64,000 bases of DNA from Acidimicrobiia bacterium (GCA_965204615.1 OZ242000.1:3223913-3287912); one strand, 5' to 3'; numbered from the stretch's first letter, positions 1,358 through 34,188 are shown. Notes: generated by a model not told the origin, from the sequence alone. Made by a program: numbers and translations.

Positions 1358-1360
1358 GCG

Positions 1361-6688
<5,328 letters not shown>

Positions 6689-14667: not shown

Positions 14668-14674
14668 GTTATGC

Positions 14675-14962: not shown

Positions 14963-15281
14963 TCACTAAAATTTAGCACCAAGACTCGAAGCCCGTGCTT
15001 CGGTTAGTGACCCGTCTCCCCGCAACCGGAAGGCTAAAGCGTTGTTTTCTTTGAACGGTGAGATCCCGTTCTGGGACACCAATCGCCGCGCCTCTCCTTT
15101 TTGGAGCCCTATCGCGGTTGCGAACCGCGGTCGGAGGCGTAGCACCCGCTGTGGACATTTCAGCGGGAACCGTCCACCGGGCTGACGGCCCTGCGCTTAT
15201 GCCATCAGTGTGACAAGTACTGGCTCAGTTCGGCGAGGTTTCGGTCAATGGCCTCTTGGGCGCGAAGCATCATCAAAGCAC

Positions 15282-15666
15282 CCTCCGGGAGGGAGCCCGA
15301 AGGGGAAGGGAGCAGCGGGCGTTTTTCGCGACTTGGCTGTGGTTTTCGCCGTGGATTTCTCGGCGGGGCTAGTTGCTGGCCGGATTGGCTAGGGAACGAG
15401 ACAGACCCTTCCCAGCACCTGGCGGTCGGCCAGGTAGGCCATGGCAGCGGGGGCCTGGTCGAAGGAGAAGACCCGGTCCACGTGGGGTGGATCGAGCCCT
15501 GTTCGCACCACTCTTTGAGCTGGACGAGATTGGCGCGGTTTTCTCTGGGTAGCCTTCTACGAAGTCTCCCCAGAACGCTCCCACCGCCGAGGCCGATTTC
15601 AGGAGGGCCAGGTTGAGCGGCAGGCGGGGGATCTTGCCGGCCGCAAAGTCCACCACCAGCAGGCGT
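15282..15666 (-). pseudogene. Truncated copy B of the qor 3' end (~270 bp) plus conserved downstream element
   Basis: 15400..15666 aligns to the last ~270 bp of qor (LLVVDFAAGKIPRLPLNLALLKSASAVGAFWGDFVE...). 15282..15400 is the shared downstream element. Confidence 0.7.
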
Positions 15667-15689
15667 CCACAGCAGGAGCGTGACCCCAC

Positions 15690-17186
15690 TCAGCTTTCTC
15701 TTATGGTCGGCGGAACCGGCTCTTTGGATGGTGGGCAGATCGCCGGTTCACGGGTGCGGCACATGAATAGCATGGTTTCCTCCCTCGATGGTGTGGATTG
15801 GAACCCGAATGTGTTGGTTGCCGTTCCGCCTGTTATTCCTTGGTTGTAGGCCCAGCCGATGGGCGCCTGGTACCAGGCGTCGGCGTTTCCGGGAACGTCG
15901 TCATAGTGGTCTTTGCCCAGAGTGCCGTTGGCTGGTTCTCCTTCCGCGCGGTAGAGGAATGCCATGGTTTGTTCTCTGGTAAGGGTGTGGCCCATCCCGA
16001 ATAGGCCGTTCCCGATTCCAGTGGTGATGTGGTTTTCGAAGGCCCAGCCGATCGGGATGTTGGCCCAGTGGTCGTCTGGGACATCGGTGAAGTGGGAGCT
16101 GCCGTCGTACTGGTCTGTTGTGCACTCGTCCGGTGCGTAGGCTCGGCACAGGAAAGTTATCATTTCTTCTCGCTTCAAACCTGACTGAACCCCGAACCGT
16201 CCTTCTCCGACGCCTGCTGTGATCTCCCATGATTGAGCCCACCTCACCGGAACGTAGTAGAAGTCGTCGTAGGGTACGTCGGTGAAAGTCGGGTAGTCGT
16301 CGCCTGGGGCTATCTCGATTATGAAAGTGTCTCCGTACCGTTCGATCACATCGAGTTCGTATCGGTCCGGATCCGTTTCGCTGTCCCCCCAGTAAATACC
16401 TTCGTCGAGACCTAGAACATGAAGCACCGAGTCGTCTGCTCCCGATAGGGCCGGTTTCGTTCGCCTGTCCGCACCCCAACAAGCATCCCTGTAGGGGTTG
16501 TCGCACTGAGCGGCGGATTGGTCGATTAGGTAGACCTCAACGCCTTCTTTCTGGATGAGAGAGTCGTATGACTCCTGAACTCGAACTCCTATGGAATGGA
16601 ACATTCCAGTAGACCAGTGCATGATCACCATCTGAGTGCCGGTTGAACCAATCGGGTTTATTGCATGCAGCGATACATGATCCCAAGGATGAATCTCTAC
16701 TTGGTCGGGCTGAATCCAGCCAGCCGCGTAACGATTCAATACATGAGTGCCCGCCAGAACCGGACGGATAGACCATCCTCTATTGTCCTCGTACCTTGCG
16801 GTCGGCCCTCTGCTCATCACATCCATGGGATTGTCATACTCGTCTATCGTGCCATCGTCATTCAAGGTTTCGCCAGTGAAGGAATGGGGCCAACTGAGCG
16901 TATGCCCGATCTCATGAGCAACGGTGTAAATCAGATTCAAGGCACGAAGGTTATCAAGTGATCCTATCCCGTTCTCGATAGAAGACAGAGCAATGGGAGA
17001 CCATCGCACGCCTACGTTCGTGAACCATCCCATCCATACCTCCCTACCGCTGTCAGGATAAAGGTCATGACACCAATTGATGGAAACACTGTCCCAACAG
17101 TAGGAGCCAGGCCCACCCCAAGACCATACGTTGGAAGCATCATCAATATCCAGCGTGGAAACGACAATCGCTGCATGGTTTCCGCC
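15690..17186 (-). pseudogene. Secreted zinc metalloprotease with C-terminal SLH domains, 3' (C-terminal) portion, cut by IS21
   Basis: HEIGH zinc-binding motif (VAHEIGHTLSWPHSF). Three SLH-like segments (FTDVP..HWA...W....GIT.G.....FG....LTREQ...FLYR). The ORF lacks a signal peptide; it continues on the far side of the IS21 element. Confidence 0.65.
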
Positions 17187-17251: not shown

Positions 17252-18040
17252 TTAGGCTAGCAGGTCTCCTTTCGGGCGGTGTTTTCTGGCTTGTGCTTGG
17301 TAGCTTCGCAGGCGGTAGCTGTCGCCGGTGATGGTGAACACGACGCTTTTGTGGAGTAGGCGGTCGAGCATGGCAGCGGCGATGGTGTGGTCGGAGAAGA
17401 TCTCTCCCCAGGACGCGACACCGAGGTTGGTGGTGAGAATGATTGATCCTTTTCCGTACCGTCGGGAGATGACCTGGAAGAGTGTGGCGGCGTCTTCTGC
17501 CGGCATGGGCAGGTATCCGAGTTCGTCGATTATCAACACTTTGGGGGTGTTGAAGAACCGCAGGGTTTGGGCCCATCTTCCTTGTAGGGCGGCTTTGCGG
17601 CACCGCGCCGCCAGGTCGGCGGCGGTGGTGTAGTACACCTTGTGTCCGGTGTCCACCGCGGCGCGTCCGAGGATGACCGCCAGCATGGTTTTACCCACGC
17701 CGGGCGGTCCGATGAACAAAACGTTGGTGGCGTCGGCCAGGTAGGCGCCGGTGGCCAGTTCTCTTATGAGTTTCTCGTTGATGCTGGGTTGGGCGGTGAA
17801 ATCGAAGTCTTCCAGTTTCCAGCGGGTGGGGAAGTTCGCCAGTTTGAGACGGGTTTCCCATCTGCGCTGTTCAGTGGTTTCGACTTCTACTCGAAGTAGA
17901 CCTTCCAGGAACTGGGTGTGTCCGGTGTTGTCCTGACGCGCCGTCTCGAGGTGGGTGGGGAGCGCCTCGGCCGCGGCGGGTAGGTCGAGGTAGGCCAGAT
18001 GGCCTCGTAGTTGTTGGTACACCGATTGTTGGTTCATCAC
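17252..18040 (-). CDS. istB: IS21-family helper ATPase IstB
   Basis: Walker A GPPGVGKT and Walker B LIIDELGY, in an IstB-like sequence. Overlaps istA by 4 bp. Confidence 0.85.
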   Translation of the reverse strand: MMNQQSVYQQLRGHLAYLDLPAAAEALPTHLETARQDNTGHTQFLEGLLRVEVETTEQRRWETRLKLANFPTRWKLEDFDFTAQPSINEKLIRELATGAYLADATNVLFIGPPGVGKTMLAVILGRAAVDTGHKVYYTTAADLAARCRKAALQGRWAQTLRFFNTPKVLIIDELGYLPMPAEDAATLFQVISRRYGKGSIILTTNLGVASWGEIFSDHTIAAAMLDRLLHKSVVFTITGDSYRLRSYQAQARKHRPKGDLLA

Positions 18041-19332
18041 AGCCCCCGGTTTTGTTGGTCGATGTGCCGCTGATAAACCTCCAGGTCTATCACCGTTTCT
18101 GTGTACAGATCAGCTCCGATACCCGAAGCGATAGCCAAAGCCGCTGCCGATGGCGGACGGTTGGGTTTGGGTTTGCAGGGTGGTTTGGTAGTGAACTCGG
18201 CCAGGACCACGTTCTCCAAAGCAGCGGTGTGTTCGGGTAGCCGTACCACCCGTCCCATACCGCGGGGTGCCTGCTGGTGGGTAGCGACCAGCCGGCCACT
18301 GGCCGAGAACATGCTGATAGTGGGGTCACCCAGCCGCCAACGGACGGTGACCTGGGTTCCTATCACCCCTGGTGGCACCGAGTATCGGTTACCGCGTACC
18401 GATACCAGCCCGTTGGAAGCCACCCTGCGCTCCAGGACCCCTTCCGCCGGGTAAGCCACCAGGGGCAGCTCGAGGAGAGGCTCGGTCTCGGCCAGTTCCC
18501 CCACGGTGCTCTCGCCTCGTGGACGGGCGTCGCCCACCGTTTGGCAGAAGCTGTCCAGGCTGTGCTGTGCCTGGGCGATGCTGGTCACCGCCGCGGTGCG
18601 CCACCACCGCTGAGAGACATAGTGAATGGCCTTTTCCACCACGCCTTTCCGTTGAGGACGGCGCGGTGGGCACGGATCGACAACCACCCCGTAATGCTTG
18701 GCTACCCCAACGAACGACGGCTGGATACGACCGCCGGCGGCGACCACGGTCGCCATCCGATCCACCCGCCACCGCCGCGGGGTGCCCCCCAGGCGTCTCA
18801 ACACCTGGTCGAGACCCTCCACCAAATGGGGTTGGTCCTGGCGGGACGTGATCCACGCCCGAAAAGCGCCCGAGTGCGACAACACACCCACCAACACATG
18901 AGCCGTGGCTCCCCACGGGGCATCACGCAGCTCCACCCAATCCCATTGACACTCCTCACCCGGCGGATGATCGATGATCGCAGTGGCACGGCCCCTGGTG
19001 CCCGCACAAGCGCCACACAACGGCCGCAGGCCCCGGTTGCGGATCTTCCGCACGAACGTCGGGTAACTCTGCGAATAGCCCAAAGCCACCACCTCGTCGA
19101 ACAGCGCCGACCCCCACACATGCGGATCATCAGACAACCGCTGCCGCACATACGCCTCGAACTCATCAAACAAATCCGCCCCCGCCCGGGCACGCTGACC
19201 GGGCACCCGATCGCCCGACAGATACGCTCGCACGGTACGGCGGCTCTTACCAACATGACGGGCAATAGCCGAGATCGACCACCCCCGCCTCCTCAAAGCA
19301 TGAACTTCCACGCACTCCTCCAGTACCAACAT
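18037..19332 (-). CDS. istA: IS21-family transposase IstA
   Basis: N-terminal HTH (WSISAIARHVGKSRRTVRAY) followed by an integrase-core-like region. 431 aa. Confidence 0.85.
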   Translation of the reverse strand: MLVLEECVEVHALRRRGWSISAIARHVGKSRRTVRAYLSGDRVPGQRARAGADLFDEFEAYVRQRLSDDPHVWGSALFDEVVALGYSQSYPTFVRKIRNRGLRPLCGACAGTRGRATAIIDHPPGEECQWDWVELRDAPWGATAHVLVGVLSHSGAFRAWITSRQDQPHLVEGLDQVLRRLGGTPRRWRVDRMATVVAAGGRIQPSFVGVAKHYGVVVDPCPPRRPQRKGVVEKAIHYVSQRWWRTAAVTSIAQAQHSLDSFCQTVGDARPRGESTVGELAETEPLLELPLVAYPAEGVLERRVASNGLVSVRGNRYSVPPGVIGTQVTVRWRLGDPTISMFSASGRLVATHQQAPRGMGRVVRLPEHTAALENVVLAEFTTKPPCKPKPNRPPSAAALAIASGIGADLYTETVIDLEVYQRHIDQQNRGL

Positions 19333-20970: not shown

Positions 20971-22905
20971 ATGAGATTCCGTGATCGGTTGGGTCTGGTT
21001 TCGGCTGCTGCGGCCGTGTCCCTTCTTTTGGTTGGTGTCCCATCGGTTTTCGGGCAGACGGCTCCGGACTTTGAGGATGTTCCCGAGGGTCATGTTGCGG
21101 AGGAAGCTATCTCATGGGCCGCCGACAATGCGGTAACGGAAGGCGTGGGCGACAACCGCTTCGGGATCGGCCAGACCCTTACCCGCTACGAAATGGTCAC
21201 ATTCCTGTGCCGAGCGTACGATCCCGCCAGTTGTCAGAGCGGCGTGAGGGGAAGCGATAGTTTCGATGACGTGCCTTCCGATCACTGGGCCGACCACTCG
21301 GTGGGTTGGGCGGCCGACCGTGGGATAACCAGCGGGGTCAGCGCCACGGAGTTCGGGGGTTCCCAGACGCTCACCCGTGAACAGATGATCACGTTCCTCT
21401 ACCGCGCAGAAGGGTCACCGACCGGCGGATCGGACGGAAGTGACGTGTTCCAGGACGGGCCCGACCGGAGCCATTGGGCGAGCCTCCCGATAGGTTGGGC
21501 ATACGACCAGGGAGTGACCGGTGGGATCGCCGCAGGAACATTCGGGTTCGGCACCAAGGTGTCACGAGAAGAAATGGTGCTGTTCCTGTGCAGGACGGTG
21601 GCGCCCGGGACGTGTCAACCGTCACAGGATCCCCTCCCCTCGAGTGTCGTTCACCCGTCGCCGACAACCACCACTAGGACGCCTACCACCCAACGCATGG
21701 CCTACTCCACCTTCTCTCCCAACCCTGGAGTGTGGGTGGAGGACGCGGACGGTACCAACAAACGACACCTACACGACAGTGGAGCCAACTTACGGTGGTC
21801 GTCCGACGGCACCAGAGTCGCCTACGGCGCCAGGGAAGGGTTGTGGGTGGCAAACGTGGACGGCACCCACAAACAACTCCTCGTCGAAGACGGCTCTTAT
21901 CACAAGTGGTCTCCCGACGGCACCAGGATCGCCTACAAAACCAGGGACGACGAGTTATGGGTGATAGGAGCGGACGGCACCGACAAGCAACAGCTCGGCC
22001 GAATCGACTCCATCTTCTTCCTCGACAGCTACCACTTCGTGTGGTCACCGAACGGTTCCAGAATCGCCTATCGGACCAAGGACCGTTCCTTGTGGGTGGC
22101 GGACGCCGACGGGACCAACAAACGACAACTCATGTACCGCAACAAGGGTTACAGGCTGCTGTGGTCACCCGACAGCGCCAAAGTCGCCTATTTCACCAGC
22201 GACGGCGAGTTGTGGATCGCGGACGCCGACGGGACCAACCAACGGCAACTGGGCGAGAGCGCCTATTCTCCGCGGTGGTCACCCGACGGCACCAGAATCG
22301 CCTACACCAGCCGCAGCGACAGGACATCGGGGCAGGTGATGTGGGTGGCGGATGCCGACGGGACCAACAAACGCCAACTCGGCGAACTCTTCAGCGGTAC
22401 AAGTCTGCGGTGGTCGCCCGACGGCACCAAGATCGCCTACCACAAAACCGGCGGCGCGTTCTGGGTGATGAGCGCCGACGGGACCAACAAACAACAACTC
22501 CACGACGATATTCATCACAATATCGCCCCGTGGTGGTCACCCGACAGCACCAAGATCGCCTACGGACAGAACGAGTTGTGGATCGCGGACGCCGACGGGA
22601 CCAACCAACAACAAATCGCCGAAGTCGCTCATACTCCGCGGTGGTCGCCCGACAGCACCAAGATCGCCTACCAAGCCGGCGATGGGTTATGGGTGGTAGA
22701 CGCCGACGGGACCAACCAACAACAAATCACCAATCCCGCCCAACACTACGTCTCCGTCACTGATCTGCTCTGGTCACCCGACAGCACCAAAATCGTCTAC
22801 TGGACCGGCTCATCAGGCCTATGGGTGATCGACGCCGACGGGACCAACCAACGAATAATCGCAGAATCCAGCCACGCCTACCAGCAGATATGGAGTCCCC
22901 GGTAA
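20971..22905 (+). CDS. Secreted S-layer-homology (3x SLH) protein with ~14 PD40/TolB-like beta-propeller repeats
   Basis: Signal peptide. N-terminal SLH motifs (FEDVPEGHVAEEAISWAADNAVTEG...; FDDVPSDHWADHSVGWAADRGITSG...). Repeated WSPDGT.IAY....LWV.DADGTN..QL units. Confidence 0.75.
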   Translation: MRFRDRLGLVSAAAAVSLLLVGVPSVFGQTAPDFEDVPEGHVAEEAISWAADNAVTEGVGDNRFGIGQTLTRYEMVTFLCRAYDPASCQSGVRGSDSFDDVPSDHWADHSVGWAADRGITSGVSATEFGGSQTLTREQMITFLYRAEGSPTGGSDGSDVFQDGPDRSHWASLPIGWAYDQGVTGGIAAGTFGFGTKVSREEMVLFLCRTVAPGTCQPSQDPLPSSVVHPSPTTTTRTPTTQRMAYSTFSPNPGVWVEDADGTNKRHLHDSGANLRWSSDGTRVAYGAREGLWVANVDGTHKQLLVEDGSYHKWSPDGTRIAYKTRDDELWVIGADGTDKQQLGRIDSIFFLDSYHFVWSPNGSRIAYRTKDRSLWVADADGTNKRQLMYRNKGYRLLWSPDSAKVAYFTSDGELWIADADGTNQRQLGESAYSPRWSPDGTRIAYTSRSDRTSGQVMWVADADGTNKRQLGELFSGTSLRWSPDGTKIAYHKTGGAFWVMSADGTNKQQLHDDIHHNIAPWWSPDSTKIAYGQNELWIADADGTNQQQIAEVAHTPRWSPDSTKIAYQAGDGLWVVDADGTNQQQITNPAQHYVSVTDLLWSPDSTKIVYWTGSSGLWVIDADGTNQRIIAESSHAYQQIWSPR

Positions 22906-23232
22906 GACCTGGAAAACCGGTCGTCCTTTGTCGAAGTGACTCGCCACCGGATCGGGCTGGGGGCTGACAGCGAACAAGTCCGGTCGAGTATGGACCCAGC
23001 CGAGCGGTTCGGGCCCGTTGACGAGGACACCGGCCGGCGGAAGGGATGATAAGCTGGCGTTGCACCTCGGGGTGGTGGGTGACAGCAAGCGGGCGCTACG
23101 GTACTTCGTCGCACCTCGTCAGACGATCACAATCGCAAATGAACGCTGCTGTGGTTTCATGAGCATCTACCTCGATAGTTAATTATGGTTGCCGGGCGTC
23201 CTCCTGAGGTTCCGCCGATGCTCCTATGTTTG

Positions 23233-24471
23233 TCAAATCGGGTTTGGGTGGGGTGGGAGGGTGGTGAGCCATTGGTGGTATCGGGTGGCGAGGTGGTGGT
23301 CGTGGTGTTGGCCTCGTTCGAGTTGGGAGATGCGTGTTGGGTAGGTTCGGAGGGTTTCGGCGGCGTGGTTTAGGGTTGTTCCGGCGTTTTTGCGTAGGCA
23401 GCGAAGGTCGTTGCCGTGGAGCGTGGGGTGTGGGTTGGTGAGCAGGTGGTAGATCTCTCGGGCGATGTGGCGTTTGAGGCAGCGGATGATTTCTTTTCGG
23501 GTTTTGCCTTCGGTTCGGCGTTTTTCGGCGTATTCGATGGTTGGCTGGTGCCAGCGCATGCGGGTGGTAGCGATCCGCCAGAGTGCCTGGTTGGCTTGGC
23601 GGTTCCCGCCGCGGTTGAGGCGATGGCGTACGATCCGTCCCGACGAGGCTTGGACCGGGCTTACGCCGCACAGGGCAGCGAAAGACGCTTCGGTGCGCAT
23701 GCGTTCGGGGTTGTCCCCAGCTGTGATCAGCAACGCGGCGGCGGTGTCCGCGCCGATCCCGGGAGCGGAGAGCAGCGCCGGGTTGGTCTCGGCGCAGAGA
23801 CGTTTGATGTCGGTATCGAGGTCTTGTATCTCGGCGGTGAGCGATTGGTGTCGGCGGGCCAAGACCCGGAGTGCTTTCTTGGCATAGGCAACAGTGGTCT
23901 GGGCTGTGCCGGGACGAAAACCGGCACAGATCTTGATCCGGGCTTTGCCCGAAACGCCGCTAAGTTGGTGTTTTACCTGCTCGGGAGCTGTCACCACCAG
24001 AGCATGCAACTGGTTTTTGGCCTGGGTGCGTGCCTTGACCGCCGAACGGCGGGCCACCTGGAGCATCCGTATCCCCTCGACCGGACCGTTTCCGCTTTTG
24101 GGTACCCCGGTGGCCTGTCCGTTGAGAACCGACCGAGCCGCGGCCTGGGCGTCGGTGGCGTCGGTCTTGCCCAACCGGCGGCGTAGCTGCCGATTGGGAC
24201 GGTTCACCTCTATCACCTCGACACCGGTCCCGGTTAGATAACGGGCCAGGCCGGCGCCGTAACTACCGGTGCCCTCCACACCGACCCCAACCACACGACC
24301 CTGAGACTGAAGCCAGTCGCCCAGTTGTTCATAACCGGCCGCATCGGCGTCGAACGGGGAAGTACCCAAGACTCGACCGGTGCTGTCCACCACCGCTGCC
24401 ACATGAACATCCCGATGGGTATCCACCCCACCGTACACTTGTTGACTCTCTGACATGAACAGTTCCTCCAA
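23233..24471 (-). CDS. IS110-family transposase
   Basis: N-terminal DEDD-type motifs (VYGGVDTHRDVHVAAVVDSTGRVLG; VGVGVEGTGSYGAGLARYL). 412 aa. Confidence 0.85.
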   Translation of the reverse strand: MEELFMSESQQVYGGVDTHRDVHVAAVVDSTGRVLGTSPFDADAAGYEQLGDWLQSQGRVVGVGVEGTGSYGAGLARYLTGTGVEVIEVNRPNRQLRRRLGKTDATDAQAAARSVLNGQATGVPKSGNGPVEGIRMLQVARRSAVKARTQAKNQLHALVVTAPEQVKHQLSGVSGKARIKICAGFRPGTAQTTVAYAKKALRVLARRHQSLTAEIQDLDTDIKRLCAETNPALLSAPGIGADTAAALLITAGDNPERMRTEASFAALCGVSPVQASSGRIVRHRLNRGGNRQANQALWRIATTRMRWHQPTIEYAEKRRTEGKTRKEIIRCLKRHIAREIYHLLTNPHPTLHGNDLRCLRKNAGTTLNHAAETLRTYPTRISQLERGQHHDHHLATRYHQWLTTLPPHPNPI

Positions 24472-24781
24472 AACGGGATAGAATTCGGCCTATTCACCAG
24501 ACCCGCTGGCGGATGGACAGACCACTCTGTGAGTATTAGGGGGGCCTCGTGGAGGTTGTCAGGAATGGCGTCAGCGGCGGTGTCGTGACCCAAGACCACT
24601 CTGACCTTTGTGTCTTACACGTGATATGTCCGACACCGCCGTGGCGCCTTCTGGGCGTTCCGTTGCTGGCCTGATCAGAAGCTTGTCCACCCCCTTGGGG
24701 GTGTGACCCATCACAGTGTTGCCGTCACGGTTTGCGCCTTCTTGGGGCAATAACCCAGTTTGCACAAGAAGGGAGTTTCTT

Positions 24782-25825
24782 ATGTTGGCCACAATGGTAG
24801 ATCATGTGATCGGGATCGATCCTGATCGTGACCGGGTCACCGCCTCGGTAGTGGACACGTCCACTACCGGAGAACAGGCATCTGCGGTGTTCGCTACTAC
24901 CCGGGTGGGGTATGACCGGCTGTTGGAATGGGCCAATCGGTATACCACCGTCTCTGATCGGGTGTGGTCGGTGGAAGGCACGGGCAGTTACGGAGCAGGC
25001 GCAACAGCCTATCTCACTTCGCGGGGTGAGTGGGTGACCGAGTTCAACGATCCCATCCCCACCCGCGACGGCGCCAAGACCGACGCTTTGGACGCCCGAC
25101 GCGCCGCCCGCCAGGCGCTGGGTCGCCGGTGGCCATCGGTCCCGCGGGCTCGTGGAGACCGAAAAGCCCTACGAGTGTTGGAAACGACCCGCAACAGCGC
25201 CAAAAACGACAAAATAGCGGCTATCCACCAACTCAAAGCTCTCCTGGTCACCGCACCAGTCGATCTTCGTGACCAACTCCGAGGGCTGACCACTGCTGCT
25301 CTGGTCACCAAATGCGCACGGTTCCGACTCGCATCGGCGCCGGTCACCGAACACACCGCCACCAAGCAGGCTATGCGTTCTCTGGCCCGACGCATACGCA
25401 CTCTCGCCACCGAAATCGCAGAACTGCGCACAGCAATCAACGAACTGGTCAACTCTGTGGCCCCCCAACTGTTGAACCAGCCCGGGGTAGGCCCGATCAC
25501 CGCCGCGCAGGTATACATCGCCTGGTCCCACAAAGGCCGATGCCGCAACGAAGCCGCGTTCGCTCGCCTCGCCGGCGTCGCACCCCTAGAAGCCTCCTCC
25601 GGGCTACACACCCGCCACCGGCTCAACCGGCACGGCGACCGGACCCTCAACCAGGCAATCCACACCATCGCTATCACCCGCTCCCGGGCCTGCCCCAAAA
25701 CCCGCGCCTACATCGCCAAACGCATCAGCCAAGGAAAAACCACCCGCGAAGCCCGCCGGTGTCTCAAACGCTACATCGCCCGCCAGCTCTACCGACTGCT
25801 CGAAAACCCACCCCCACCCGCCTAA
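24782..25825 (+). CDS. IS110-family transposase (second copy, divergent from the first)
   Basis: VIGIDPDRDRVTASVVDTST...WSVEGTGSYGAGATAYL. RBS AAGAAGGGAG lies upstream of the ATG at 24782. The ORF-track start at 24716 is probably too far upstream. Confidence 0.8.
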   Translation: MLATMVDHVIGIDPDRDRVTASVVDTSTTGEQASAVFATTRVGYDRLLEWANRYTTVSDRVWSVEGTGSYGAGATAYLTSRGEWVTEFNDPIPTRDGAKTDALDARRAARQALGRRWPSVPRARGDRKALRVLETTRNSAKNDKIAAIHQLKALLVTAPVDLRDQLRGLTTAALVTKCARFRLASAPVTEHTATKQAMRSLARRIRTLATEIAELRTAINELVNSVAPQLLNQPGVGPITAAQVYIAWSHKGRCRNEAAFARLAGVAPLEASSGLHTRHRLNRHGDRTLNQAIHTIAITRSRACPKTRAYIAKRISQGKTTREARRCLKRYIARQLYRLLENPPPPA

Positions 25826-26072
25826 CGGCCGAACCAGCTCTCCACCCCAAAAACACGATTTGGAGAACATAGAAGCATCACGATGAAATGGAGAAGCAAA
25901 GCTCCTATCAGGTCACATCCGCCTACGGGTCGGTGAAACATCCCTCAGCCGACAAACAGGCCGACAGATCGGCGGCAAGGCACAAAGCCAGGTTTAGCGT
26001 GGGTCAGACCCGCCCCGGCCAAGGGACCCCTACAAGTATGAGTGGTTTGGCGGATGGTTGGTGCGGACGAAG

Positions 26073-29000
26073 CTATGGTGAGGCGTCGCCGGGTTCGGTG
26101 ACGTCGATCACGATCACCGATATTTTGCGCTTTTCTTCGGGTTCGAGTTGGCTTTCGAGGCGTTGTCGTAATTCCTGGGGAGTGGTCGGTCGCCGGCCGG
26201 AGGGCGGGGGTGTGGTCCGATCGGCGCCGAACCACAGGACGAGGAAGACCCCGTATCCGGAGGTGGAGGGATCGGTTGTGTATCTGTTGATCAGTTGGTT
26301 GCGAAGGGCGCTCCACAGATTGCGGTGAGAGTTCTTCTTGATCTCGACCGGCACGTTGAATCCTTTGAAGGTCGCTCGGATGTCGGATCTCTTTGCTCCG
26401 GCATATCGGCCCTCCGGCGATACATCGATCCTGGAGGGAAGTCGGTGATTCAGGGCTTGGAGCAGGGCATCGCGGCAGGAGTCCTCCGGGTTGCTGTTGG
26501 TGGGGCGTCCGTAGGAGTCTTCGTTCCAGAATTGACGCCATAGGTTGGCGCTGTCTCCGCGAATGTGTTCGGAGATCGTTTCAAACTGATCGCAGAGCAG
26601 GGCGGCCAGGTCGGCCGGGTTCGCCGGTTCCTGATTGGTGAGGGTCCGTTGGACTTCTTCAACTCCCGGATGGTTGAAAGAGGCTTCGCGGTACACAGCC
26701 CTTTGGGCTTCCTGTGCCCACAGCAATTGATCTCGCCACCGTACGAGTTTGGAGTCTTCCACCAGATCCGCCAGTTCTCGGTGGGTTTCGGCATCCTCCA
26801 TGGAGCCCAGTTGCCTGATGATGTCACTTATGAGTTCGGAGGTGCCGATTTCGAGCGTGACCAGTCCCTCCGGCACCCGGGGCCGGTAGGAGGGCGCCAA
26901 AATGCGGACCAGGTTGGCCAGCATCTCTGCGTTCCACTCGCCGGATACCATCCGGCGGCGACCCGCATACCTGGGAGAGTTGCTCAGGAACTCGGCCAGA
27001 TGTCGGACGCGTCTCTCGTCGCCGCCAAGTACGTAATCCTTCAGTTGTTGCATGCGCGGTTCGGTGGACAACATGGCAGCCACTGTCATCCATCTGACCC
27101 GCTGACCGACATCGAGACTCTTCAAAGCCAGCCTTTCCTTGGCCATGACCAGGAGCGCCGCGTCATCGGGGCGGCTGAGCGCTTTCCCCAGAAGTTGGTC
27201 GAATTGTCGGGTTTGCTTCCTGGGTATCCGGGTGGGAAAGGCGTCAAGCAGCCTCAGTCTGGCCTCGTCCACCAGGCTGTCGTGGCCTGGAAGAAGGTCC
27301 AGTTCCTCGACCGTGGGTAGGTGTTCCTTACCGTTGCGCAGGTCCGCCACCGCGCATCGGTGCACAGTATCGAGCACCAGGTCCGGGTTCTGTCGGAACC
27401 ACATGTCACGGCACTCCCGAGTTTCCTCGCGGCCCAGGGGAAAGCAGTAATACAGTGTCAGGGCCTGTCGCATCCGGGCGGCCTCCAGTGCCAGGGCAGG
27501 TTCCGGGCCGGTCGCCAGAAAATGCATGCTTGCCTGAACGGGGTAGGCAAGGTATGGCATGCGTGATTGGGAGTGGAGCGAGAAGGTCTCATCCACTCCG
27601 GGAAGGTCATGGCGCCACAAAGCGCCCCGGAGGGCGGCCATGACGGCATCGGCAAGTTGTGGGTCTCCTCCGATGAAATCTCGGACCCGCTCGTAGGGCG
27701 TCCCCTGTTCAATGTTTCGAAACTGTCCGAAGTAAGCCAGTGCCAGGGTGTGAAGATTGGCGGGGGAGAAGGTGTTGTTCCGCAGTTCCGTTTCCTGCGA
27801 ACGAAGGAGACCGGCCCACTCCTCTCGCTGGCGTCTTTCTTCCATCCGTTGCTGCTCTCTGCGTTGGTCCTCCCGTTGTCGCCAATCCTCCTCGGGTGAT
27901 GGAGCCAAGGCGGTCTGACGCTGCCGGTGAAGCTCGTCGAGTTCCCCTGCCAGCCGCGCATGTCCGCGCAGTCGCTCGCGCATCATTTCAAGGGTCAGTC
28001 CTTCGCTGATGGAGGAGTATTCCAACGCGTGGTAGGCGTCTCTCAGGAGTATCCGTGAGGATGCCGGCCGTGTATCGGCCAGATTGACTGCCTGCTCAAG
28101 ATACCAGAGTCCCAGGTCGGCGGGAGGCCTGCTGTGGTACAGCACCTTTGCGAAAGATAGGGGATAGGACGCCGCGTCGCCGTCGGGATTGTCCGGTTCG
28201 AGCCACTTGAGGATGATCTCCTTTTGAAGTTGGGGTCTTGCTTCCAACCATGCTCGTATTTCGTCGGCATCTTCTTTGTCCGCGGGTCTCCACCTGATCC
28301 TGGAGTGATAAGTGGCGGTCAGCCAGTTGTAGAGACGGTCTGTTTCGATTTCATCTCCTATCGCATTCAAGGCGCGTGCCAGGAGTCGAGGCGGCAGTTC
28401 CTCGAATCTTGAGTCTTCCAGAGATCGAGCGATGTCGGCGGCGTCTTCGCACAGCGCATCAAGGAGTTCCGCCAACTGTTGGCCGGATGACTTGTCGAGG
28501 AGGGTGTGGTTCCAGAAGATCCAGAAACTGCCGAAAAGGTTCTTTCTGTTGCGGGGCGCCACATACCTCCAGACCCGGTGGGGAGAAACCTGGTCAGGAT
28601 AAAGGAATCTCAGCAGTGTTCCCCGCATCTGGTCACCGGGGTCGGCGAGCTCTGAGGCTTGGCTCTTTTCCAGTAGCCCTATGAGCTTCTGTGCCCGTGT
28701 TTCGGTGGGCGGGGCGATGTTGAGATAGGCGTCGAGAGCATCCTTTCTCACCCACGGGGACCTCCCCGCGTCGTCAACGATGGCATGGAGGCTCGGGACC
28801 AGGGTTGCCAGCGATTCCAGATCCCGGTCCGCGTGTTCCAGTATTCCGGCCAGGAACTTGACCATCCGGTCGGCCGCAGGGGTGGGTTCTCGACCATTGA
28901 GCAGGTCATCGATGATGGGGATCATGTCCCGGGAGACCAGGGAGCGGAAGGTCCAGGCCGCGTATTCGTTATGGACGGTTCGGGCGTCTGTCGGGCTGGG

Positions 29001-30224
29001 ACCTGACAGAGGCTCCTTTGTCGCGAATGAGGCCAAGGACCGGAGTAGGCGTGTCTTGTCGGTTTTGGTTATTCCGCTGATGTCCCCGTACAGCCCGACA
29101 CCCACCGGATCGGCGTCGATGAGCAGGCCACGGGCCTCCCGGGAATGTGTCGCCAGCCAAGCGGACAGACCGCGCAGCGGGGTAACCACCCGTCCGTCGC
29201 CGGGACTGCTCATCAGGGCCGTCACTCTTCGGGCCGGGAGTCCTTCTTCGATGAGCTCGGCCAGGTAGCGGCCCCCCAGGAACTCGGCCACCTGCCGGTG
29301 GACGGGACGGAATAACCCCTCTCCCGCGGCGGCGAACAGTTTGGTGGCCAATGCTCTCCTGAGACGCTCGGGTGCGATCTTCGTGCCCTCGCTGACCTGA
29401 TCCGAATCCATGAAGGACGGGCTGGTTCCTCGGAGGAACGAATATGCTTCGATGTCGGCCAGCAAAGCCAGCGCACACAGATAGCCGATGGCCGTCCTTA
29501 CCTCGGTGGGCGGCGCCGGGGCGGCAATCACATGCTCCGAATTCTGTTCGGCCGCCAACTCTCGGCAGGCCATTTCGAACGTTTCGCGCCTGCTTCGGGG
29601 CCAGCCTTCGCCTTTCCTGGTCGCGTCCACGACCAACTGCAGGGTCAGAGGATTCTTCAGGAGGGGCCAGATTCCCCGATGCCGCGACTCTTCCAGGAAC
29701 TCATCCACGTCCCCCGAGAGCGCTGATCTCAGAATCTCTTTCACCGACATCTCATCGAGGGGTTGCAAGTGGACGACGGTGACCTCTCCGTCCGCGGGGG
29801 CCACCAGAGCCAGTTTCTCACGGTCGTTGCTACCGAGCCAGTCCGCTTCCCGACAGGAGATGCGGAACCCCGGAGGGCGGAGCCTGTCCAGCCGTCGCCG
29901 GATTCTGTCCAAGGGAACGCGGGAGTCTCTCGCTCCCGCCCGCACCTCGTCCAGGCCGTCGATGAAGAGAATCTTTTCCCGCCACTCCGGATGCGAGTCG
30001 ATGTCAAAGTATATGAAATCGCGGGCGGGTATGTATGCGGCGCCGCTTCCCAGCGCTTGGCGCTCCTTCATGAACTCGGTTGTTTTGCCGGCGCCGGGAT
30101 CGCCGAGCAAAACCAGCGCGGGCCGTGACCGGAACGCACTGAACGGCATGCTTTCTCCACGGAAGGTTTCACCTCGACCGTCTAGGTGGACCTCGGTGCA
30201 AACTCGTCCAACCAAGGTGCTCAT
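26073..30224 (-). CDS. Large NACHT-like STAND NTPase (1383 aa) with long helical C-terminal region and putative C-terminal PD-(D/E)xK nuclease-like domain
   Basis: Walker A GDPGAGKT and Walker B ILFIDGLDEV (the hhhhDGhDE NACHT signature). Downstream RISCRE (sensor-1-like) and NPLTLQLV (GxP-like). About 900 aa of helical, charge-rich repeats. C-terminal ...SDIRATFKGFNVPVEIKK... fits a D...ExK motif. Start overlaps the upstream stop (ATGA). Confidence 0.7.
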   Translation of the reverse strand: MSTLVGRVCTEVHLDGRGETFRGESMPFSAFRSRPALVLLGDPGAGKTTEFMKERQALGSGAAYIPARDFIYFDIDSHPEWREKILFIDGLDEVRAGARDSRVPLDRIRRRLDRLRPPGFRISCREADWLGSNDREKLALVAPADGEVTVVHLQPLDEMSVKEILRSALSGDVDEFLEESRHRGIWPLLKNPLTLQLVVDATRKGEGWPRSRRETFEMACRELAAEQNSEHVIAAPAPPTEVRTAIGYLCALALLADIEAYSFLRGTSPSFMDSDQVSEGTKIAPERLRRALATKLFAAAGEGLFRPVHRQVAEFLGGRYLAELIEEGLPARRVTALMSSPGDGRVVTPLRGLSAWLATHSREARGLLIDADPVGVGLYGDISGITKTDKTRLLRSLASFATKEPLSGPSPTDARTVHNEYAAWTFRSLVSRDMIPIIDDLLNGREPTPAADRMVKFLAGILEHADRDLESLATLVPSLHAIVDDAGRSPWVRKDALDAYLNIAPPTETRAQKLIGLLEKSQASELADPGDQMRGTLLRFLYPDQVSPHRVWRYVAPRNRKNLFGSFWIFWNHTLLDKSSGQQLAELLDALCEDAADIARSLEDSRFEELPPRLLARALNAIGDEIETDRLYNWLTATYHSRIRWRPADKEDADEIRAWLEARPQLQKEIILKWLEPDNPDGDAASYPLSFAKVLYHSRPPADLGLWYLEQAVNLADTRPASSRILLRDAYHALEYSSISEGLTLEMMRERLRGHARLAGELDELHRQRQTALAPSPEEDWRQREDQRREQQRMEERRQREEWAGLLRSQETELRNNTFSPANLHTLALAYFGQFRNIEQGTPYERVRDFIGGDPQLADAVMAALRGALWRHDLPGVDETFSLHSQSRMPYLAYPVQASMHFLATGPEPALALEAARMRQALTLYYCFPLGREETRECRDMWFRQNPDLVLDTVHRCAVADLRNGKEHLPTVEELDLLPGHDSLVDEARLRLLDAFPTRIPRKQTRQFDQLLGKALSRPDDAALLVMAKERLALKSLDVGQRVRWMTVAAMLSTEPRMQQLKDYVLGGDERRVRHLAEFLSNSPRYAGRRRMVSGEWNAEMLANLVRILAPSYRPRVPEGLVTLEIGTSELISDIIRQLGSMEDAETHRELADLVEDSKLVRWRDQLLWAQEAQRAVYREASFNHPGVEEVQRTLTNQEPANPADLAALLCDQFETISEHIRGDSANLWRQFWNEDSYGRPTNSNPEDSCRDALLQALNHRLPSRIDVSPEGRYAGAKRSDIRATFKGFNVPVEIKKNSHRNLWSALRNQLINRYTTDPSTSGYGVFLVLWFGADRTTPPPSGRRPTTPQELRQRLESQLEPEEKRKISVIVIDVTEPGDASP

Positions 30225-31483
30225 GCCGGTTCCAGCCAGTAATCAGCAGGTGCTGCCAGGAACTCGTGGAGAGGGCGGCCACCGGATCCGACAACCACAG
30301 ACCCAAGAGGCCGGAAACGCCCCTCGATTTCGGCCAATCCCGAGAGCGCCAAGGGCCCCTTTCCGGTCTTCACCTCAATCCCCACCACGCGTGGTCCTCT
30401 TTGCAGGACGAAATCCACTTCATGACTCCCGGACCTCCAGTAATAGACCGAAGTGGACGGCCCGGCCGTATTGACCAGGTGAGCCCCTACGGCGCTCTCG
30501 ACCAGACGCCCCCAATACCTCCGGTCCGCACGCGCCTCTTCGAAGCCGTACCCCCACGCGGCAGTCATCAGAGCCGTGTTGAGCACGTTCAGCTTCGGTG
30601 TGGAAGCCTTGGCGGAAATCCGGCGAGTGGTGTATTTTGAGAGACCCGCCAACAGCCCCGCATCCGAGAGCAGCTTCAGATAGCGGGTAAGGGTCGTGGT
30701 GTTTCCGGCATCCTGAAGTTGACCCAGCATTTTGTTGTACGACAGCACCTGTCCCGAGTACAGACACCCTATGTCGAACAGGCGCTTCAAGAGCGACGGC
30801 TTGTGCACTCTGGTCATCGCCAGCACGTCACGCTCGATGATGGGTTCCACCAGAGCCCCCTGCACATAAGTCATCCACCTCTCCGGGTCGTGTGCCCGCG
30901 ATGCTGCCCCCGGGTAACCGCCGAAGTAGATGTACCGGTCCAAATCGAACCCGAAGGCCTCGGCCATTTCCAGATACGACCAATGTGTGAAACGGATCGG
31001 CTCGAACCGTCCCGCCAGGCTCTCATTCAAGCCCGCCTGCATCAACAGAGGAGCGGAACCCAGGACCACCACATGGAGGGGGCAACCGCTGGTCCGGTCG
31101 GCGTCCCATAGTCCCTTCACGACATCAGACCACCCTTCGATCCTCTGTATCTCGTCCAGGACCAGGACCAAACCGTCTTCCGACTGCCATGCCCGGTGAC
31201 GAGAGTCCTGCCACACACCCACCAGCCAGGACGCGTCTTTCACCACCGGCAACGAAGCGACAGCGTCGCTGCCCGTGGGCGGCCACGGTCTCGCCCTCTC
31301 CACTACGGGCTCATCCACCGCCACATATAGACTCGGACGGCCAACAGAGGACAAAGCCTGGCGAGCCGCAACAGTCTTGCCGGTCTGGCGCGGGCCGAAG
31401 ATAGCCAACAGCCGCTCGGGCGGCTCGGCCAGCCTCTCAATCAGAGTCCCTACCTGTGAACGGCGGAAATCACTCATCCCCAC
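30221..31483 (-). CDS. AAA+ ATPase, COG1373-like (AAA_14 plus DUF4143-like C-terminal domain)
   Basis: Walker A GPRQTGKT and Walker B LVLDEIQ. C-terminal SGSHEVDFVL...GIEVKTGK resembles the DUF4143 / PD-(D/E)xK-like module. Translationally coupled to the NACHT gene. Confidence 0.7.
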   Translation of the reverse strand: MGMSDFRRSQVGTLIERLAEPPERLLAIFGPRQTGKTVAARQALSSVGRPSLYVAVDEPVVERARPWPPTGSDAVASLPVVKDASWLVGVWQDSRHRAWQSEDGLVLVLDEIQRIEGWSDVVKGLWDADRTSGCPLHVVVLGSAPLLMQAGLNESLAGRFEPIRFTHWSYLEMAEAFGFDLDRYIYFGGYPGAASRAHDPERWMTYVQGALVEPIIERDVLAMTRVHKPSLLKRLFDIGCLYSGQVLSYNKMLGQLQDAGNTTTLTRYLKLLSDAGLLAGLSKYTTRRISAKASTPKLNVLNTALMTAAWGYGFEEARADRRYWGRLVESAVGAHLVNTAGPSTSVYYWRSGSHEVDFVLQRGPRVVGIEVKTGKGPLALSGLAEIEGRFRPLGSVVVGSGGRPLHEFLAAPADYWLEPA

Positions 31484-31506
31484 CAGGATACAAGAATCCA
31501 GGTGTA

Positions 31507-31545
31507 GTTATTGAGTGATTTTACTCAATAACTACACACGCCACC
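31507..31545. terminator. AT-rich perfect palindrome (15-bp arms, 6-nt loop) between qor and the ATPase gene; possible terminator or recombination site
   Basis: GTGTAGTTATTGAGT-GATTTT-ACTCAATAACTACAC. Strongly AT-rich in a ~65% GC context. Lies 45 bp downstream of the qor stop. No U-tract. Confidence 0.4.
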
Positions 31546-31590
31546 TACGAAGATTCAACAGAAAAGACCGACGGGTTGCCGGGCAGATCT

Positions 31591-32565
31591 CTAGGGAACC
31601 AGGCAGACCCTTCCCAGCACCTGGCGGTCTGCCAGGTAGGCCATGGCTGCGGGGGCCTGGTCGAAGGAGAAGACCCGGTCCACGTGGGGGTGGATGAGGC
31701 CCTGTTCGCACCACTCTTTGAGCTGGACTAGATTGGCGCGGTTTTCCCTGGGGTAGCGTTCCACGAAGTCTCCCCAGAACACTCCCACCGCCGAGGCCGA
31801 CTTGAGGAGGGCCAGGTTGAGCGGCAGGCGGGGGATCTTGCCGGCCGCAAAGCCCACCACCAGCAGGCGTCCGTTCCAACGGAGTGAGCGGAAGCACGTT
31901 TCAGTGGCGGAACCGCCCACGGGATCGTAGACCACGTCGGCGCCCTTTCCGTCGGTGAAACTGCGGATCGCCTCCCGTAGGTCATCGCGGTCGTAGCGGA
32001 TGGCGACATCCGCCCCGCGTTGCAGAACGAACTCCGCCTTCCTCTCCGAGGACACCGCCGCCGCCACCCGGCATCCCAGTAGCTTGGCAATTTCGACCGC
32101 GGCGATTCCCACTCCACCGGCCGCGCCCAGCACCACCACCGTCTCTCCTTCGGACACCGCGGCCCGGTCGACCAGGGCATGGTAGGAGGTTCCGTAGGCG
32201 GTCATGAAGGACGCCGCCTCGATGTCGGTCAGGTTGTCGGGCGCCGGTGCGGTCCGGGAGACGTCGGTCACCACCGTTTCGGCGAAACAACCCACCCCGG
32301 CGAACATCACCACCCGGTCTCCCACCGACACCGAGTCCACCCCGGGTCCCACCTCGGTGACCGTGCCGGCTCCCTCGAAGCCGGGAATGAAGGGGAGGTC
32401 CGGCTTCACCTGGTAGTGCCCCGACACCACCAGGATGTCGGCGAAGTTGACTCCCGACCCTCCCAGGGCGATCTTGACCTGCCCGGGTCCGGGCGTCGGT
32501 TCGGGGACCTCGGTGGCCACCAGACCGGCCGGTCCCTTCCAATCTGTGCACAGAACGGCTTTCAC
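31591..32565 (-). CDS. qor: NADPH:quinone oxidoreductase / zinc-type alcohol dehydrogenase-like (MDR family), intact copy
   Basis: 324 aa. GGSGVNFADILVVSGHY...LGAAGGVGIAAVEIAKLLG (Rossmann GxGxxG). Its 3' third is the sequence repeated at 13.3, 15.4 and 20.9 kb. Confidence 0.8.
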   Translation of the reverse strand: MKAVLCTDWKGPAGLVATEVPEPTPGPGQVKIALGGSGVNFADILVVSGHYQVKPDLPFIPGFEGAGTVTEVGPGVDSVSVGDRVVMFAGVGCFAETVVTDVSRTAPAPDNLTDIEAASFMTAYGTSYHALVDRAAVSEGETVVVLGAAGGVGIAAVEIAKLLGCRVAAAVSSERKAEFVLQRGADVAIRYDRDDLREAIRSFTDGKGADVVYDPVGGSATETCFRSLRWNGRLLVVGFAAGKIPRLPLNLALLKSASAVGVFWGDFVERYPRENRANLVQLKEWCEQGLIHPHVDRVFSFDQAPAAMAYLADRQVLGRVCLVP

Positions 32566-32593
32566 GGGCTTTTAGGTTAGGGACTTGCATCGC

Positions 32594-33214
32594 TTAGTTG
32601 ACGACAATGCCGCCAACTAGTGATACTGTTCCGCGATGTCCGCTCGCGCCGCTCCGCCAAGAGGCGGTGTGGGTCTTACAACGGAAGTTTGTATGGCGCA
32701 TCGCATCGGGAAGAGCCCCTCCCGACCCCGGGAAACCCCGGGCGCCTATGTTTCGAGCGGCGTTCACATCCCGGTCCAACTCCAATCCGCAACGCTGACA
32801 GGAAAACACCCTGAGGCGTAGAGGCATTTCTGTCTGTGCCCGCAGATGGAGCAGTCGGTGGATGTGGACTTTGGGTTGGCCCTCTCATACCGGACACCAG
32901 CTTTCCAGGCTTTGTATTCCAGTATCTTGTCGAGGGCCGACCACCACTGGTCGGATAGCTTTCTTGAGTATCTCTTTGCCCTGGGACTGGGACAACCCAT
33001 CCGGGAACTTCTCCCTCTCAGGGTTGTGATGCTCTTTCCACCACGCGTAAGTGCCCTTCCAGGACTCCAGGGCGGCGTTGTACAACTCCGAGCACATCCC
33101 GAATATCACGGTCAGACGGCGATGCTGCGACGCCGAACACTTGGCCGGGAGGCGGAAGGTCTGCACCATCTGGGACAAATAGAGAAGATGCGAGGGAGGT
33201 GTGACAGGCATCAA
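32594..33214 (-). pseudogene. tnpB: Decayed IS605/IS1341-type tnpB (OrfB) remnant in three frame-disrupted pieces
   Basis: Fragments carry TnpB-like features: ...RRLTVIFGMCSELYNAALESWKGTY...; ...KAWKAGVRYERANPKSTSTDCSICGH...; and the C-terminal zinc ribbon CQRCGLELDRDVNAARNI. Total length is far shorter than an intact ~400-aa TnpB. Confidence 0.5.
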
Positions 33215-33318
33215 CCAACTGCAGGTAACCTGACGGGAAAGATCCGGCTCCCATCGGTGATCTCCGTAACGCCGAGGGGCACCCTGCGTCTTGCAACATA
33301 GAGCGGGTTGGAAGGAAC

Positions 33319-34188
33319 ATGGACAGACCGGACTTTTCCGGACGAGTTCTCCGAGCTATAGCCAAAGAATATCGGGACGAGATGGGTCCCGCTCGTGCCG
33401 AGCAATTGGCTTCGCGGGCGATAGCCCGGGCGGGGGAACGCTCCCGAAGGTATCAGCGGATAGGAGTGCTGGCGTCCGGTGCGGCCCTGGCCGCCTCCCT
33501 GGTGGTGGCGGGAGTGGCGGTGTTGACCGGCGGTTCGGATTCGCTGGCTCCGCCGGACCCCGAGTCCACCCCGGTGGCGTCCGGTTCGGTCTCAGGCGAT
33601 GGGGTGAACGTTCCGACCCTGACCAGGGAGGGGCTGATGGAGGCTCTCGATCTGATCGACCAGCAGAGGGAGTTGGAAGCCGCCGAGATGGTGGTGGCGG
33701 CTCTCTCCTACATCGAAGAGTCGGTTGCGAGCGCCGACGTGGTCCCGTCGGAAGCCATCATCGAGGCATTGTCGCCACCCGATCCACCCCCTGAGGGAGC
33801 GCAGACCCCCACCACCTCCCCCTCGGCATCGCAAAGCGCCTCACCTGAGGAGGACATATACGCCTACGGTCCTCAGCCGTCGGGACAGGAGGAGGCTTCC
33901 AACGGCCCGGTGTACGAGACGCCCGAGTCCCACCCCGGGGAGGAGGTGGCCGAGGCCACGCTCCGGGATGTGGCGGCGGATCCCGCGGCCATCGGAGAAC
34001 TCGGGCAGATGCTGAAGCTCGAGGTGGAGGAATTGCTGGGTGTGCTCGATGTCTCCGATTCGGATCCGGACGCCATCAACGACGCGGTCGAGGAAGTGGA
34101 GAAGGCCGTGGCGCCGATCCTGGAATATCATTCCCAGGACGAACCGACGATTCTCATCCCCACCGGCGGTGATGAAGAACAAGAATGA
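33319..34188 (+). CDS. Single-pass membrane protein with acidic, Pro/Glu-rich extracytoplasmic region (possible anti-sigma-like partner)
   Basis: TM helix IGVLASGAALAASLVVAGVAVL. Low-complexity acidic C-terminus. Located directly upstream of the ECF sigma gene. Confidence 0.4.
   Translation: MDRPDFSGRVLRAIAKEYRDEMGPARAEQLASRAIARAGERSRRYQRIGVLASGAALAASLVVAGVAVLTGGSDSLAPPDPESTPVASGSVSGDGVNVPTLTREGLMEALDLIDQQRELEAAEMVVAALSYIEESVASADVVPSEAIIEALSPPDPPPEGAQTPTTSPSASQSASPEEDIYAYGPQPSGQEEASNGPVYETPESHPGEEVAEATLRDVAADPAAIGELGQMLKLEVEELLGVLDVSDSDPDAINDAVEEVEKAVAPILEYHSQDEPTILIPTGGDEEQE

Follow-up and report, generated by a model that had tools for sequence, protein, structure and literature searches.

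The window analysed here, a stretch of 64,000 nucleotides from an Acidimicrobiia bacterium (GCA_965204615.1 OZ242000.1:3223913-3287912), carries on its minus strand two overlapping genes, one for a COG1373-type ATPase of the PDC-S01 class of defence candidates and the other for a large NACHT-type STAND protein, that recur in the same order and with the same kind of overlap in genomes of about ten phyla. Considering all of the evidence, we lean towards understanding the pair as a two-gene antiphage module in which the ATPase is a functional partner of the large protein, responsible for control of its dose and probably involved besides in a co-effector or licensing role. A working partnership of this kind appears most likely because the motor and the nuclease motifs of the ATPase are intact and the coupling of the two genes is strict. 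The preliminary description of the locus had proposed a candidate antiphage system, and the proposal gains from the placement of the large protein, indicated by its match to the EruA profile, in a named and experimentally studied antiphage family. What is new, as far as the accessible literature goes, is the seemingly obligate coupling, old and spread widely by transfer, of such a sensor to a PDC-S01-type ATPase-nuclease having its own conserved operator-like site.

Results

Conservation of the gene pair

Both open reading frames (ORFs) are found exactly where the preliminary description had put them, and the junction, GGCATGAGC (GGC-ATGA-GC), bears out the overlap, with the TGA stop of the ATPase gene and the ATG start of the large gene sharing 4 nt. 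The units concerned, taken from the ORF listing and the junction sequence, are the following.

26073-30224, minus strand: large gene (1383 aa, ATG start), encoding the Erebus/Avs10-family NACHT STAND protein
30221-31483, minus strand: ATPase gene (420 aa, GTG start), COG1373-type, PADLOC PDC-S01 candidate
30221-30224, minus strand: ATGA overlap of ATPase stop and large-gene start

The ATPase ORF of 420 aa described earlier exists with its GTG start, but the true start is probably the ATG at 31477, giving a protein of 418 aa, because a 98%-identical relative is called at 418 aa and because a -10-like hexamer lies 7 nt upstream of that codon.

A scan of one genome per species, done as the forward test of pairing, gave 80 loci with relatives of the large protein (hereafter the sensor) at 37-78% identity. 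The predicted co-occurrence was borne out in 77 of them, distributed over about ten phyla, with the ATPase gene directly upstream on the same strand and the partner ATPases 53-87% identical to that of the window. The overlap, as (A/G)TGA, recurs in 70 or more of the 79 related loci, consistent with the translational coupling claimed at the outset, and a Shine-Dalgarno (SD)-like tetramer precedes the sensor gene in 32% of loci only. Scarcity of the tetramer combined with the overlap fits translation of the sensor by termination-reinitiation. Since no other flanking family was common to more than nine loci, the conserved unit comprises exactly two genes, placed in otherwise variable contexts. 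The reciprocal test among metagenome sequences showed that ATPases at least ~52% identical to that of the window are followed immediately by a sensor gene; some 64 relatives at 48-53% identity, which come from soil, peat and groundwater, occur on their own. Pairwise distances of sensor and ATPase are strongly correlated (Pearson r = 0.84, a value reached by 0 of 2000 Mantel permutations), the ATPase being the more conserved partner (mean distance 0.38 vs 0.57 for the sensor).

Carriers of the pair comprise Acidimicrobiia, Chloroflexota, Latescibacterota, Acidobacteriota, Gammaproteobacteria, Nitrospinota, Nitrospirales, Gemmatimonadota, Opitutales, Rhodothermales and Tectimicrobiota. Nearly all of the best 80 genome matches are metagenome-assembled genomes (MAGs), with names of sponge symbionts in many of the record titles (Candidatus Poriferisocius, Poriferisodalis, Spongiisociaceae, Porisulfidus). 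Judged from these names, most carriers appear to be sponge symbionts, and the cassette looks like one shared horizontally within sponge microbiomes. Some genomes hold two copies (loci L006 and L008 on one contig; L049 and L078 in one genome). A restriction of the pairing to sponge MAGs is ruled out by L172, on an IMG/VR contig, and by L098, both of them paired, with sensors ~30% identical.

The preliminary description had taken the pairing for an undescribed system. This agrees with the accessible literature (which leaves out van den Berg 2024 and Kibby 2023), in that no link between a COG1373 ATPase and the Erebus family was found there; the DefensePredictor paper does not mention the pairing.

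Family and architecture of the large protein

The large protein matches the NCBIfam profile NF058535 (antiphage EruA) in full length, with residues 26-1376 aligned to positions 16-1318 of 1318 (826.4 bits, E 6e-248), and its close relatives score similarly (819-840 bits). Proteins above the cutoff of the profile include the paired sensor of L172 (1040 bits) and those of Paracoccus (1321 bits) and Bradyrhizobium (1035 bits); the Bradyrhizobium plasmid protein is colinear with the window protein at 26% identity over 1328 aa. Given the full-length match and the colinearity with a cutoff-passing protein, the large protein is, at the level of its sequence, a divergent member of the known Erebus/Avs10 family and not a new NLR.

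Homology search revealed more than 2349 homologues, nearly all of ~1380 aa, for which the precomputed Pfam assignment is PF28130 (DUF8371, a recent entry). Pfam-A on the large protein itself gave AAA_22 weakly (E 0.012), no match to the NACHT model at E up to 1, and none at all in residues 481-1179. PADLOC had no match for the large protein, and PDB sequence searches with single sequence and profile returned P-loop noise only, for the large protein and the ATPase alike. The Pfam NACHT miss is understood to reflect a sequence too divergent for the model and is overridden by the fold evidence: fold search identifies a STAND NTPase of NACHT type, whose NBD-HD1-WHD fold is closest to NACHT proteins and whose WHD histidine is conserved. 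The parts of the protein are assigned as follows.

28905-30137, minus strand: NACHT NTPase module (NBD-HD1-WHD), residues ~30-440
30078-30104, minus strand: Walker A GDPGAGKTT, residues 41-49
29946-29969, minus strand: NACHT-style Walker B LFIDGLDE, residues 86-93
29259-29300, minus strand: WHD motif HRQVAEFLGGRYLA
26655-28904, minus strand: fast-evolving centre of the protein, residues 441-1190, presumed to sense the ligand
26076-26552, minus strand: PD-(D/E)xK restriction-endonuclease-like domain, residues ~1225-1383, predicted by fold search
26337-26384, minus strand: putative catalytic motif D1281 ... E1294-x-K1296 within SDIRATFKGFNVPVEIKK

Both Walker motifs, the catalytic motif and the WHD motif (HRQVAEFL, with the conserved His at H309/R310) are conserved in 40 homologues, as are SCREADWLG and, towards the C-terminus, E1247 and Q1310...Y1315. 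The Walker A sequence follows GxxGxGK[ST] and the Walker B sequence D-[GAS]-h-D-E, with residues invariant or nearly so. The definition of the NACHT motif by a tiny residue after the Walker B Asp and a downstream acidic pair reportedly goes back to Koonin and Aravind in 2000. In the C-terminal domain the core is of the alpha/beta type, and D and (D/E)xK are carried by neighbouring strands.

Much of what the preliminary description had said about the large protein thus stands. The NACHT-like STAND NTPase is backed by the fold search, the motifs listed for the protein are all present, and the C-terminal PD-(D/E)xK segment coincides with a nuclease fold, predicted from sequence and fold. The ~900 aa of helical, charge-rich repeats were not confirmed; what marks this region is only that it varies more than any other part of the protein. 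Among 77 relatives, mean pairwise identity is 31-37% in the centre, compared to 57% in the NBD and 54% in the nuclease, and this arrangement of a conserved switch, a variable centre and a conserved effector fits a diversifying central sensor. The layout, presented earlier as the reverse of typical ones, does have the nuclease C-terminal of the NTPase, but it is not novel: the order of NTPase, sensor and nuclease is a trait of the Erebus/Avs10 family, to which the protein belongs.

Erebus and Hypnos are names reportedly introduced by van den Berg et al. in 2024 (Cell Host Microbe 32:1427). We infer that EruA is Erebus from the names and from the sister relation of EruA and HyoA; a literature search under these two names gave nothing relevant. 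Avs10 (Erebus/Hypnos/bNACHT64) is described as one STAND family in which HK97-fold major capsid proteins trigger cell death, the TPR-like sensor wrapping the A-domain of the capsid protein (Lee et al., Nature 2026, PMC13581612). The main text of that paper does not mention DUF4143 or an operon, and a separate preprint calls the Erebus mechanism 'unclear'. The window protein shares with Erebus/EruA the length class (~1300-1400 aa) and, colinearly, the N-terminal NACHT module, the central sensor and the C-terminal PD-(D/E)xK domain. It differs in its score (826 bits, below 1000), in its ~26% identity to a cutoff-passing protein, in its placement in a separate clade, and in that a COG1373 ATPase gene lies directly ahead of the sensor gene in this clade (77 of 80 loci) and is coupled to it in translation, whereas the sampled proteobacterial members lack an upstream ATPase partner. 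Resemblance to Hypnos (NF058534, HyoA) is partial, with residues 142-1376 colinear to profile positions 195-1428, but at 155 bits against a cutoff of 1200 bits the protein is not a Hypnos member. With Avs1-4 and bNACHT proteins it has in common a STAND NTPase, a variable sensor and a nuclease-type effector, and the expected logic there is one of ligand-induced oligomerisation followed by abortive infection. Canonical Avs proteins, however, have the effector at the N-terminus, the STAND NTPase in the middle and the sensor at the C-terminus; the N-terminus is where the window protein has its NTPase (from ~residue 30), the nuclease following at residues 1225-1383.

The ATPase partner

The Pfam matches anticipated for the two proteins were obtained in the ATPase, with AAA_14 (1.3e-17, 64.4 bits, cutoff 27) and DUF4143 (2.1e-26, 93 bits, cutoff 28.1) both above their cutoffs, but not for the NACHT model in the large protein. 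PADLOC PDLC04791 (PDC-S01) matches the ATPase in full length (6e-153, 507 bits), and weak matches to YraN/UPF0102 were seen as well. DUF4143/COG1373 was placed in the PD-(D/E)XK superfamily by Steczkiewicz 2012 (PMC3424549). The candidate catalytic elements of the ATPase are three.

31373-31396, minus strand: Walker A GPRQTGKT, residues 30-37, with G30, P31, R32, Q33, G35, K36 and T37 invariant in the alignment
31145-31162, minus strand: Walker B VLDEIQ, residues 108-113, with D110 and E111 invariant
30368-30421, minus strand: PD-(D/E)xK-like motif E355-V-D357-F-V...E370-V-K372 at the C-terminus of DUF4143

Conservation of these motifs was assessed across the partner ATPases together with stand-alone relatives; no variation was seen at E355, E370, V371 or K372, and conservation of D357 is 90% or higher. 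In the 77 partner ATPases, conservation reaches 97% or more at 105 of 420 positions. Because the Walker A and B motifs and the E-D...E-K motifs are invariant or nearly so, the module would combine two P-loop NTPases with two apparently intact PD-(D/E)xK domains.

PDC-S01, described as an ATPase fused to a PD-(D/E)xK domain, is reported to rank fourth in frequency among the defence genes predicted in prokaryotes (PMC12988326). The window ATPase has the same composition, but PDC-S01 is a single-gene candidate, whereas the clade of the window ATPase is distinct and forms an operon with an NLR-like sensor in 77 of the 80 loci.

Operator-like site and predicted start of the transcript

Two elements lie between the ATPase gene and its upstream neighbour, the first of them identified by repeat search.

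31502-31537, no strand: perfect palindrome with 15-bp arms, GTGTAGTTATTGAGT-N6-ACTCAATAACTACAC, operator-like
31485-31490, minus strand: -10-like hexamer TATCCT, 7 nt upstream of ATG 31477

The core of the palindrome, TGAGTAA-ww-TTACTCA, lies ahead of the ATPase gene, at most 70 nt from its start, in 51 of the 88 paired loci and in 49 of the 72 unpaired ones; elsewhere in 2.0 Mb it has 4 matches only. Its presence ahead of paired and unpaired ATPases alike and its rarity elsewhere mark it as part of the ATPase unit. Complementarity runs ~9-11 bp past the core in the paired clade (62-79% Watson-Crick); the unpaired group has no such extension of the arms and shows extra direct half-sites instead. 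A TAnnnT hexamer ending 7-8 nt before the start codon is present in 75 of 157 loci, with a sharp positional peak, and together with the palindrome it accompanies the ATPase subfamily across many phyla and habitats. This placement suggests a leaderless transcript that would start at ATG 31477; a generic sigma-70 scan called no promoter in the region of the hexamer.

The palindrome was also considered as an RNA hairpin, but the idea was set aside. G-T mismatches (65) are not clearly above the 44 A-C mismatches, and symmetric change is accounted for equally well by an operator that binds a homodimer; for these reasons a DNA site for a symmetric dimer is the reading we prefer. Rfam contains no RNA family matching within 25800-31800.

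Phylogeny and unpaired relatives

Neighbour-joining trees of about 100-160 sequences were built for both proteins. The ATPase tree (161 sequences) has 86 of 87 paired genes on one side, and its opposite side holds 63 of 64 unpaired ones. The sensor tree unites seven plasmid-encoded proteins of proteobacteria in one clade. On the other side of this tree, the sensor of a P2-like prophage is basal and unpaired, the divergent and paired L172 and L098 come next, and a clade of 85 members comes last. Both trees suggest that the pairing arose once, and the simplest reading would be a single capture of an Erebus-type sensor behind a COG1373 gene, followed by co-inheritance and wide horizontal spread. 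Paired and unpaired sensors have the same Walker A/B, SCRxxDW, HRxxxEFL and D...ExK motifs, and no clade-specific insertions were found between them.

Individual relatives occur in diverse settings. In L172 (IMG/VR UViG_3300037067_027608, 370-3338), the sensor is paired with a 50%-identical ATPase, and the module adjoins components of ABC-3C (MComp1 and an SMC_N/AAA_21 ATPase), which is another defence-island context. The unpaired Erebus-like gene of the P2-like prophage (L173, IMG/VR UViG_2838054893_000003, 7315-11430; 805 bits to EruA) is located between homologues of tail gene D (4253-5416) and replication gene A (14266-16308), beside a TPR protein, a setting that resembles a phage-encoded defence hotspot. 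On plasmid p2 of Paracoccus sediminicola (L090, 3914-9144), the EruA gene (1321 bits) has a DUF4143 gene downstream across a gap of 105 nt; the DUF4143 protein is of another PDC-S01 subtype (PDLC04790), and the arrangement could be a second independent association of the families or a chance adjacency in a defence island. Stand-alone ATPases, each ~46% identical to that of the window, are encoded on Thermus oshimai pTHEOS01 (4989-6179) within an ABC-transporter cluster and on Coxiella burnetii pQpDG (4968-6203) among Dot/Icm effectors, beside an integrase fragment. No core palindrome was detected ahead of these two genes.

Surroundings of the operon in the window

Further features of the window are listed here.

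131-8479: type I-U/I-G-like cas genes (GSU0053, GSU0054, Cas3 with HD, Cas4-Cas1 fusion)
12336-13111: CRISPR-like array, period ~73 nt
23233-25825: two IS110 transposases
25960-25973, minus strand: terminator-like stem-loop ~100 nt downstream of the large-gene stop, weakly evidenced
31591-32565: intact quinone-oxidoreductase-like gene (qor), directly upstream of the operon

Terminator-like sites in the region are not more numerous than expected from shuffled sequence. The defence-island context claimed for the operon is retained as regards the CRISPR-Cas genes and the IS110 elements, but the qor fragments said to mark it were not seen in 22900-33400, where qor is intact. No terminal repeats or target-site duplication were found around the cassette.

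Insertion sequences separate the cas genes from the CRISPR-like array; among them, an IS5-like DDE transposase is apparently split by a Mutator-family transposase (8778-11770). Genes of SLH-domain proteins at 15690-17033 and 20971-22905 flank an IS21 element (istA/istB, 17252-19332). One of the SLH proteins adds PD40/WD40-like beta-propeller repeats, which account for a tandem repeat of 111 nt (22528-22728). Another tandem repeat, GC-rich and with a unit of 21 nt (CCGCCGCCACCGGCGCTTCCC, ~5.5 copies, 41223-41347), is contained in a long minus-strand ORF (40586-42736).

Discussion

The analysis establishes the anatomy of the locus, the folds and the family of its products, and the conserved coupling and co-divergence of the two genes; trigger, nuclease activity, operator binding and any contact between the proteins belong to the proposed part. 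The mechanism we propose would have the operon transcribed from its own operator-controlled promoter, the ATPase translated first and the sensor made by reinitiation at a low, fixed ratio. On the analogy of studied homologues, the central region of the sensor would bind a phage protein (there, the major capsid protein), the NACHT module would oligomerise with ATP, and the C-terminal nuclease domains, clustered in this way, would cut DNA, so that infection is aborted. The ATPase would set the dose of the toxic sensor and would probably also act on DNA as co-effector or licensing factor. A more demanding version of the partnership makes the COG1373 ATPase-nuclease an obligate second component of the NLR receptor, in which operator-binding dose control is combined with physical work alongside the Erebus-like oligomer on DNA, for example in loading or licensing the sensor nuclease. 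This version we put forward as a tentative and rather doubtful extension.

The principal competing explanation considers the locus as two independent single-gene defence systems in tandem, kept together by tight linkage only, and several observations tell against partnership or in favour of tandem placement. Sensors and ATPases each occur alone elsewhere. Six of the seven proteobacterial plasmid sensors lack a COG1373 neighbour, the seventh (Paracoccus) has downstream of it a DUF4143 gene of another subtype in what looks like defence-island adjacency, and the 85-member sensor clade includes three nested losses of the partner; the unpaired plasmid relatives and the losses mean that the sensor can exist without the ATPase. 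All sensor motifs are kept irrespective of pairing, and with no insertions distinguishing the paired proteins, the sensor sequence gives no sign of dependence on the ATPase. The studied Avs10/Erebus homologues were apparently tested as single genes, and PDC-S01 gave no protection in the only heterologous test found. Co-divergence of the two proteins can also come about through tight linkage alone. Further points touch the proposed mechanism itself: the large protein scores below the equivalog cutoff of NF058535 (826.4 vs 1000 bits), and its sensor region is so divergent that the trigger may differ from that of the studied homologues. What speaks against mere tandem placement is that order, strand and 4-nt overlap are fixed in no fewer than 70 of the 79 loci, which represent about ten phyla, while unrelated defence-island neighbours usually reshuffle and no other neighbour is kept here. 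Both trees have a single origin of the pairing with three losses only, and in most loci the sensor gene is without a promoter of its own or a clear SD motif. We therefore regard two independent systems as unlikely, albeit as the alternative to be taken most seriously.

Less likely than tandem neighbours are two explanations that assign a different role to the ATPase unit. One of them restricts it to an expression chassis or regulator that keeps the toxic sensor low and autoregulated and has no part in sensing or killing. The palindrome and the -10 box, which are part of the ATPase unit and precede stand-alone ATPases as well, would agree with such a role, as would the longer palindrome of the paired clade and a sensor gene lacking its own SD motif or promoter. 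A pure repressor, however, needs none of the Walker A/B and PD-(D/E)xK motifs that are invariant in the ATPases of the paired clade; the ATPase is, besides, more strongly conserved than the sensor. Moreover, that the ATPase binds the palindrome we infer from its being the sole protein common to all units that carry the site, and Pfam on the presumed winged helix-turn-helix segment of the ATPase returned DUF4143 only and no helix-turn-helix; both points bear equally on the dose control assumed in the partnership. A regulatory role and nothing else is, in our assessment, improbable. The other explanation sees a selfish unit, in which the COG1373 gene and its palindrome are mobile and the sensor is cargo, spread among sponge symbionts for reasons other than defence. 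Cassettes in unrelated flanks in many phyla, stand-alone ATPases in the Thermus ABC-transporter cluster and beside integrase genes on Coxiella plasmids, and the genomes with two copies could be cited for it. But the cassette of the window lacks terminal repeats and target-site duplications, its palindrome is single and confined to the 5' end, the unit has neither transposase nor integrase, and the sensor family has demonstrated antiphage activity (PMC13581612). Selfish spread thus appears very improbable.

Lastly, a partnership of sensor and ATPase would have importance beyond the locus described. Erebus/Avs10 proteins are bacterial relatives of animal NLRs and are treated in the accessible literature as self-contained single-protein sensors. 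A large and phylogenetically coherent sensor lineage tied to an ATPase-nuclease suggests that an accessory motor may be required by NLR-like receptors or may set their dose. Although very common, PDC-S01 is without demonstrated function, and the conserved partner and the operator-like site provide handles for testing it. The distribution of the module over about ten phyla looks like a clear example of the horizontal sharing of an immune cassette in one host-associated community. If the ATPase were indeed an obligate second component, the module would represent a two-component bacterial NLR system and would give a first functional context to a 'candidate defence' gene that ranks among the most abundant uncharacterised ones of prokaryotes.

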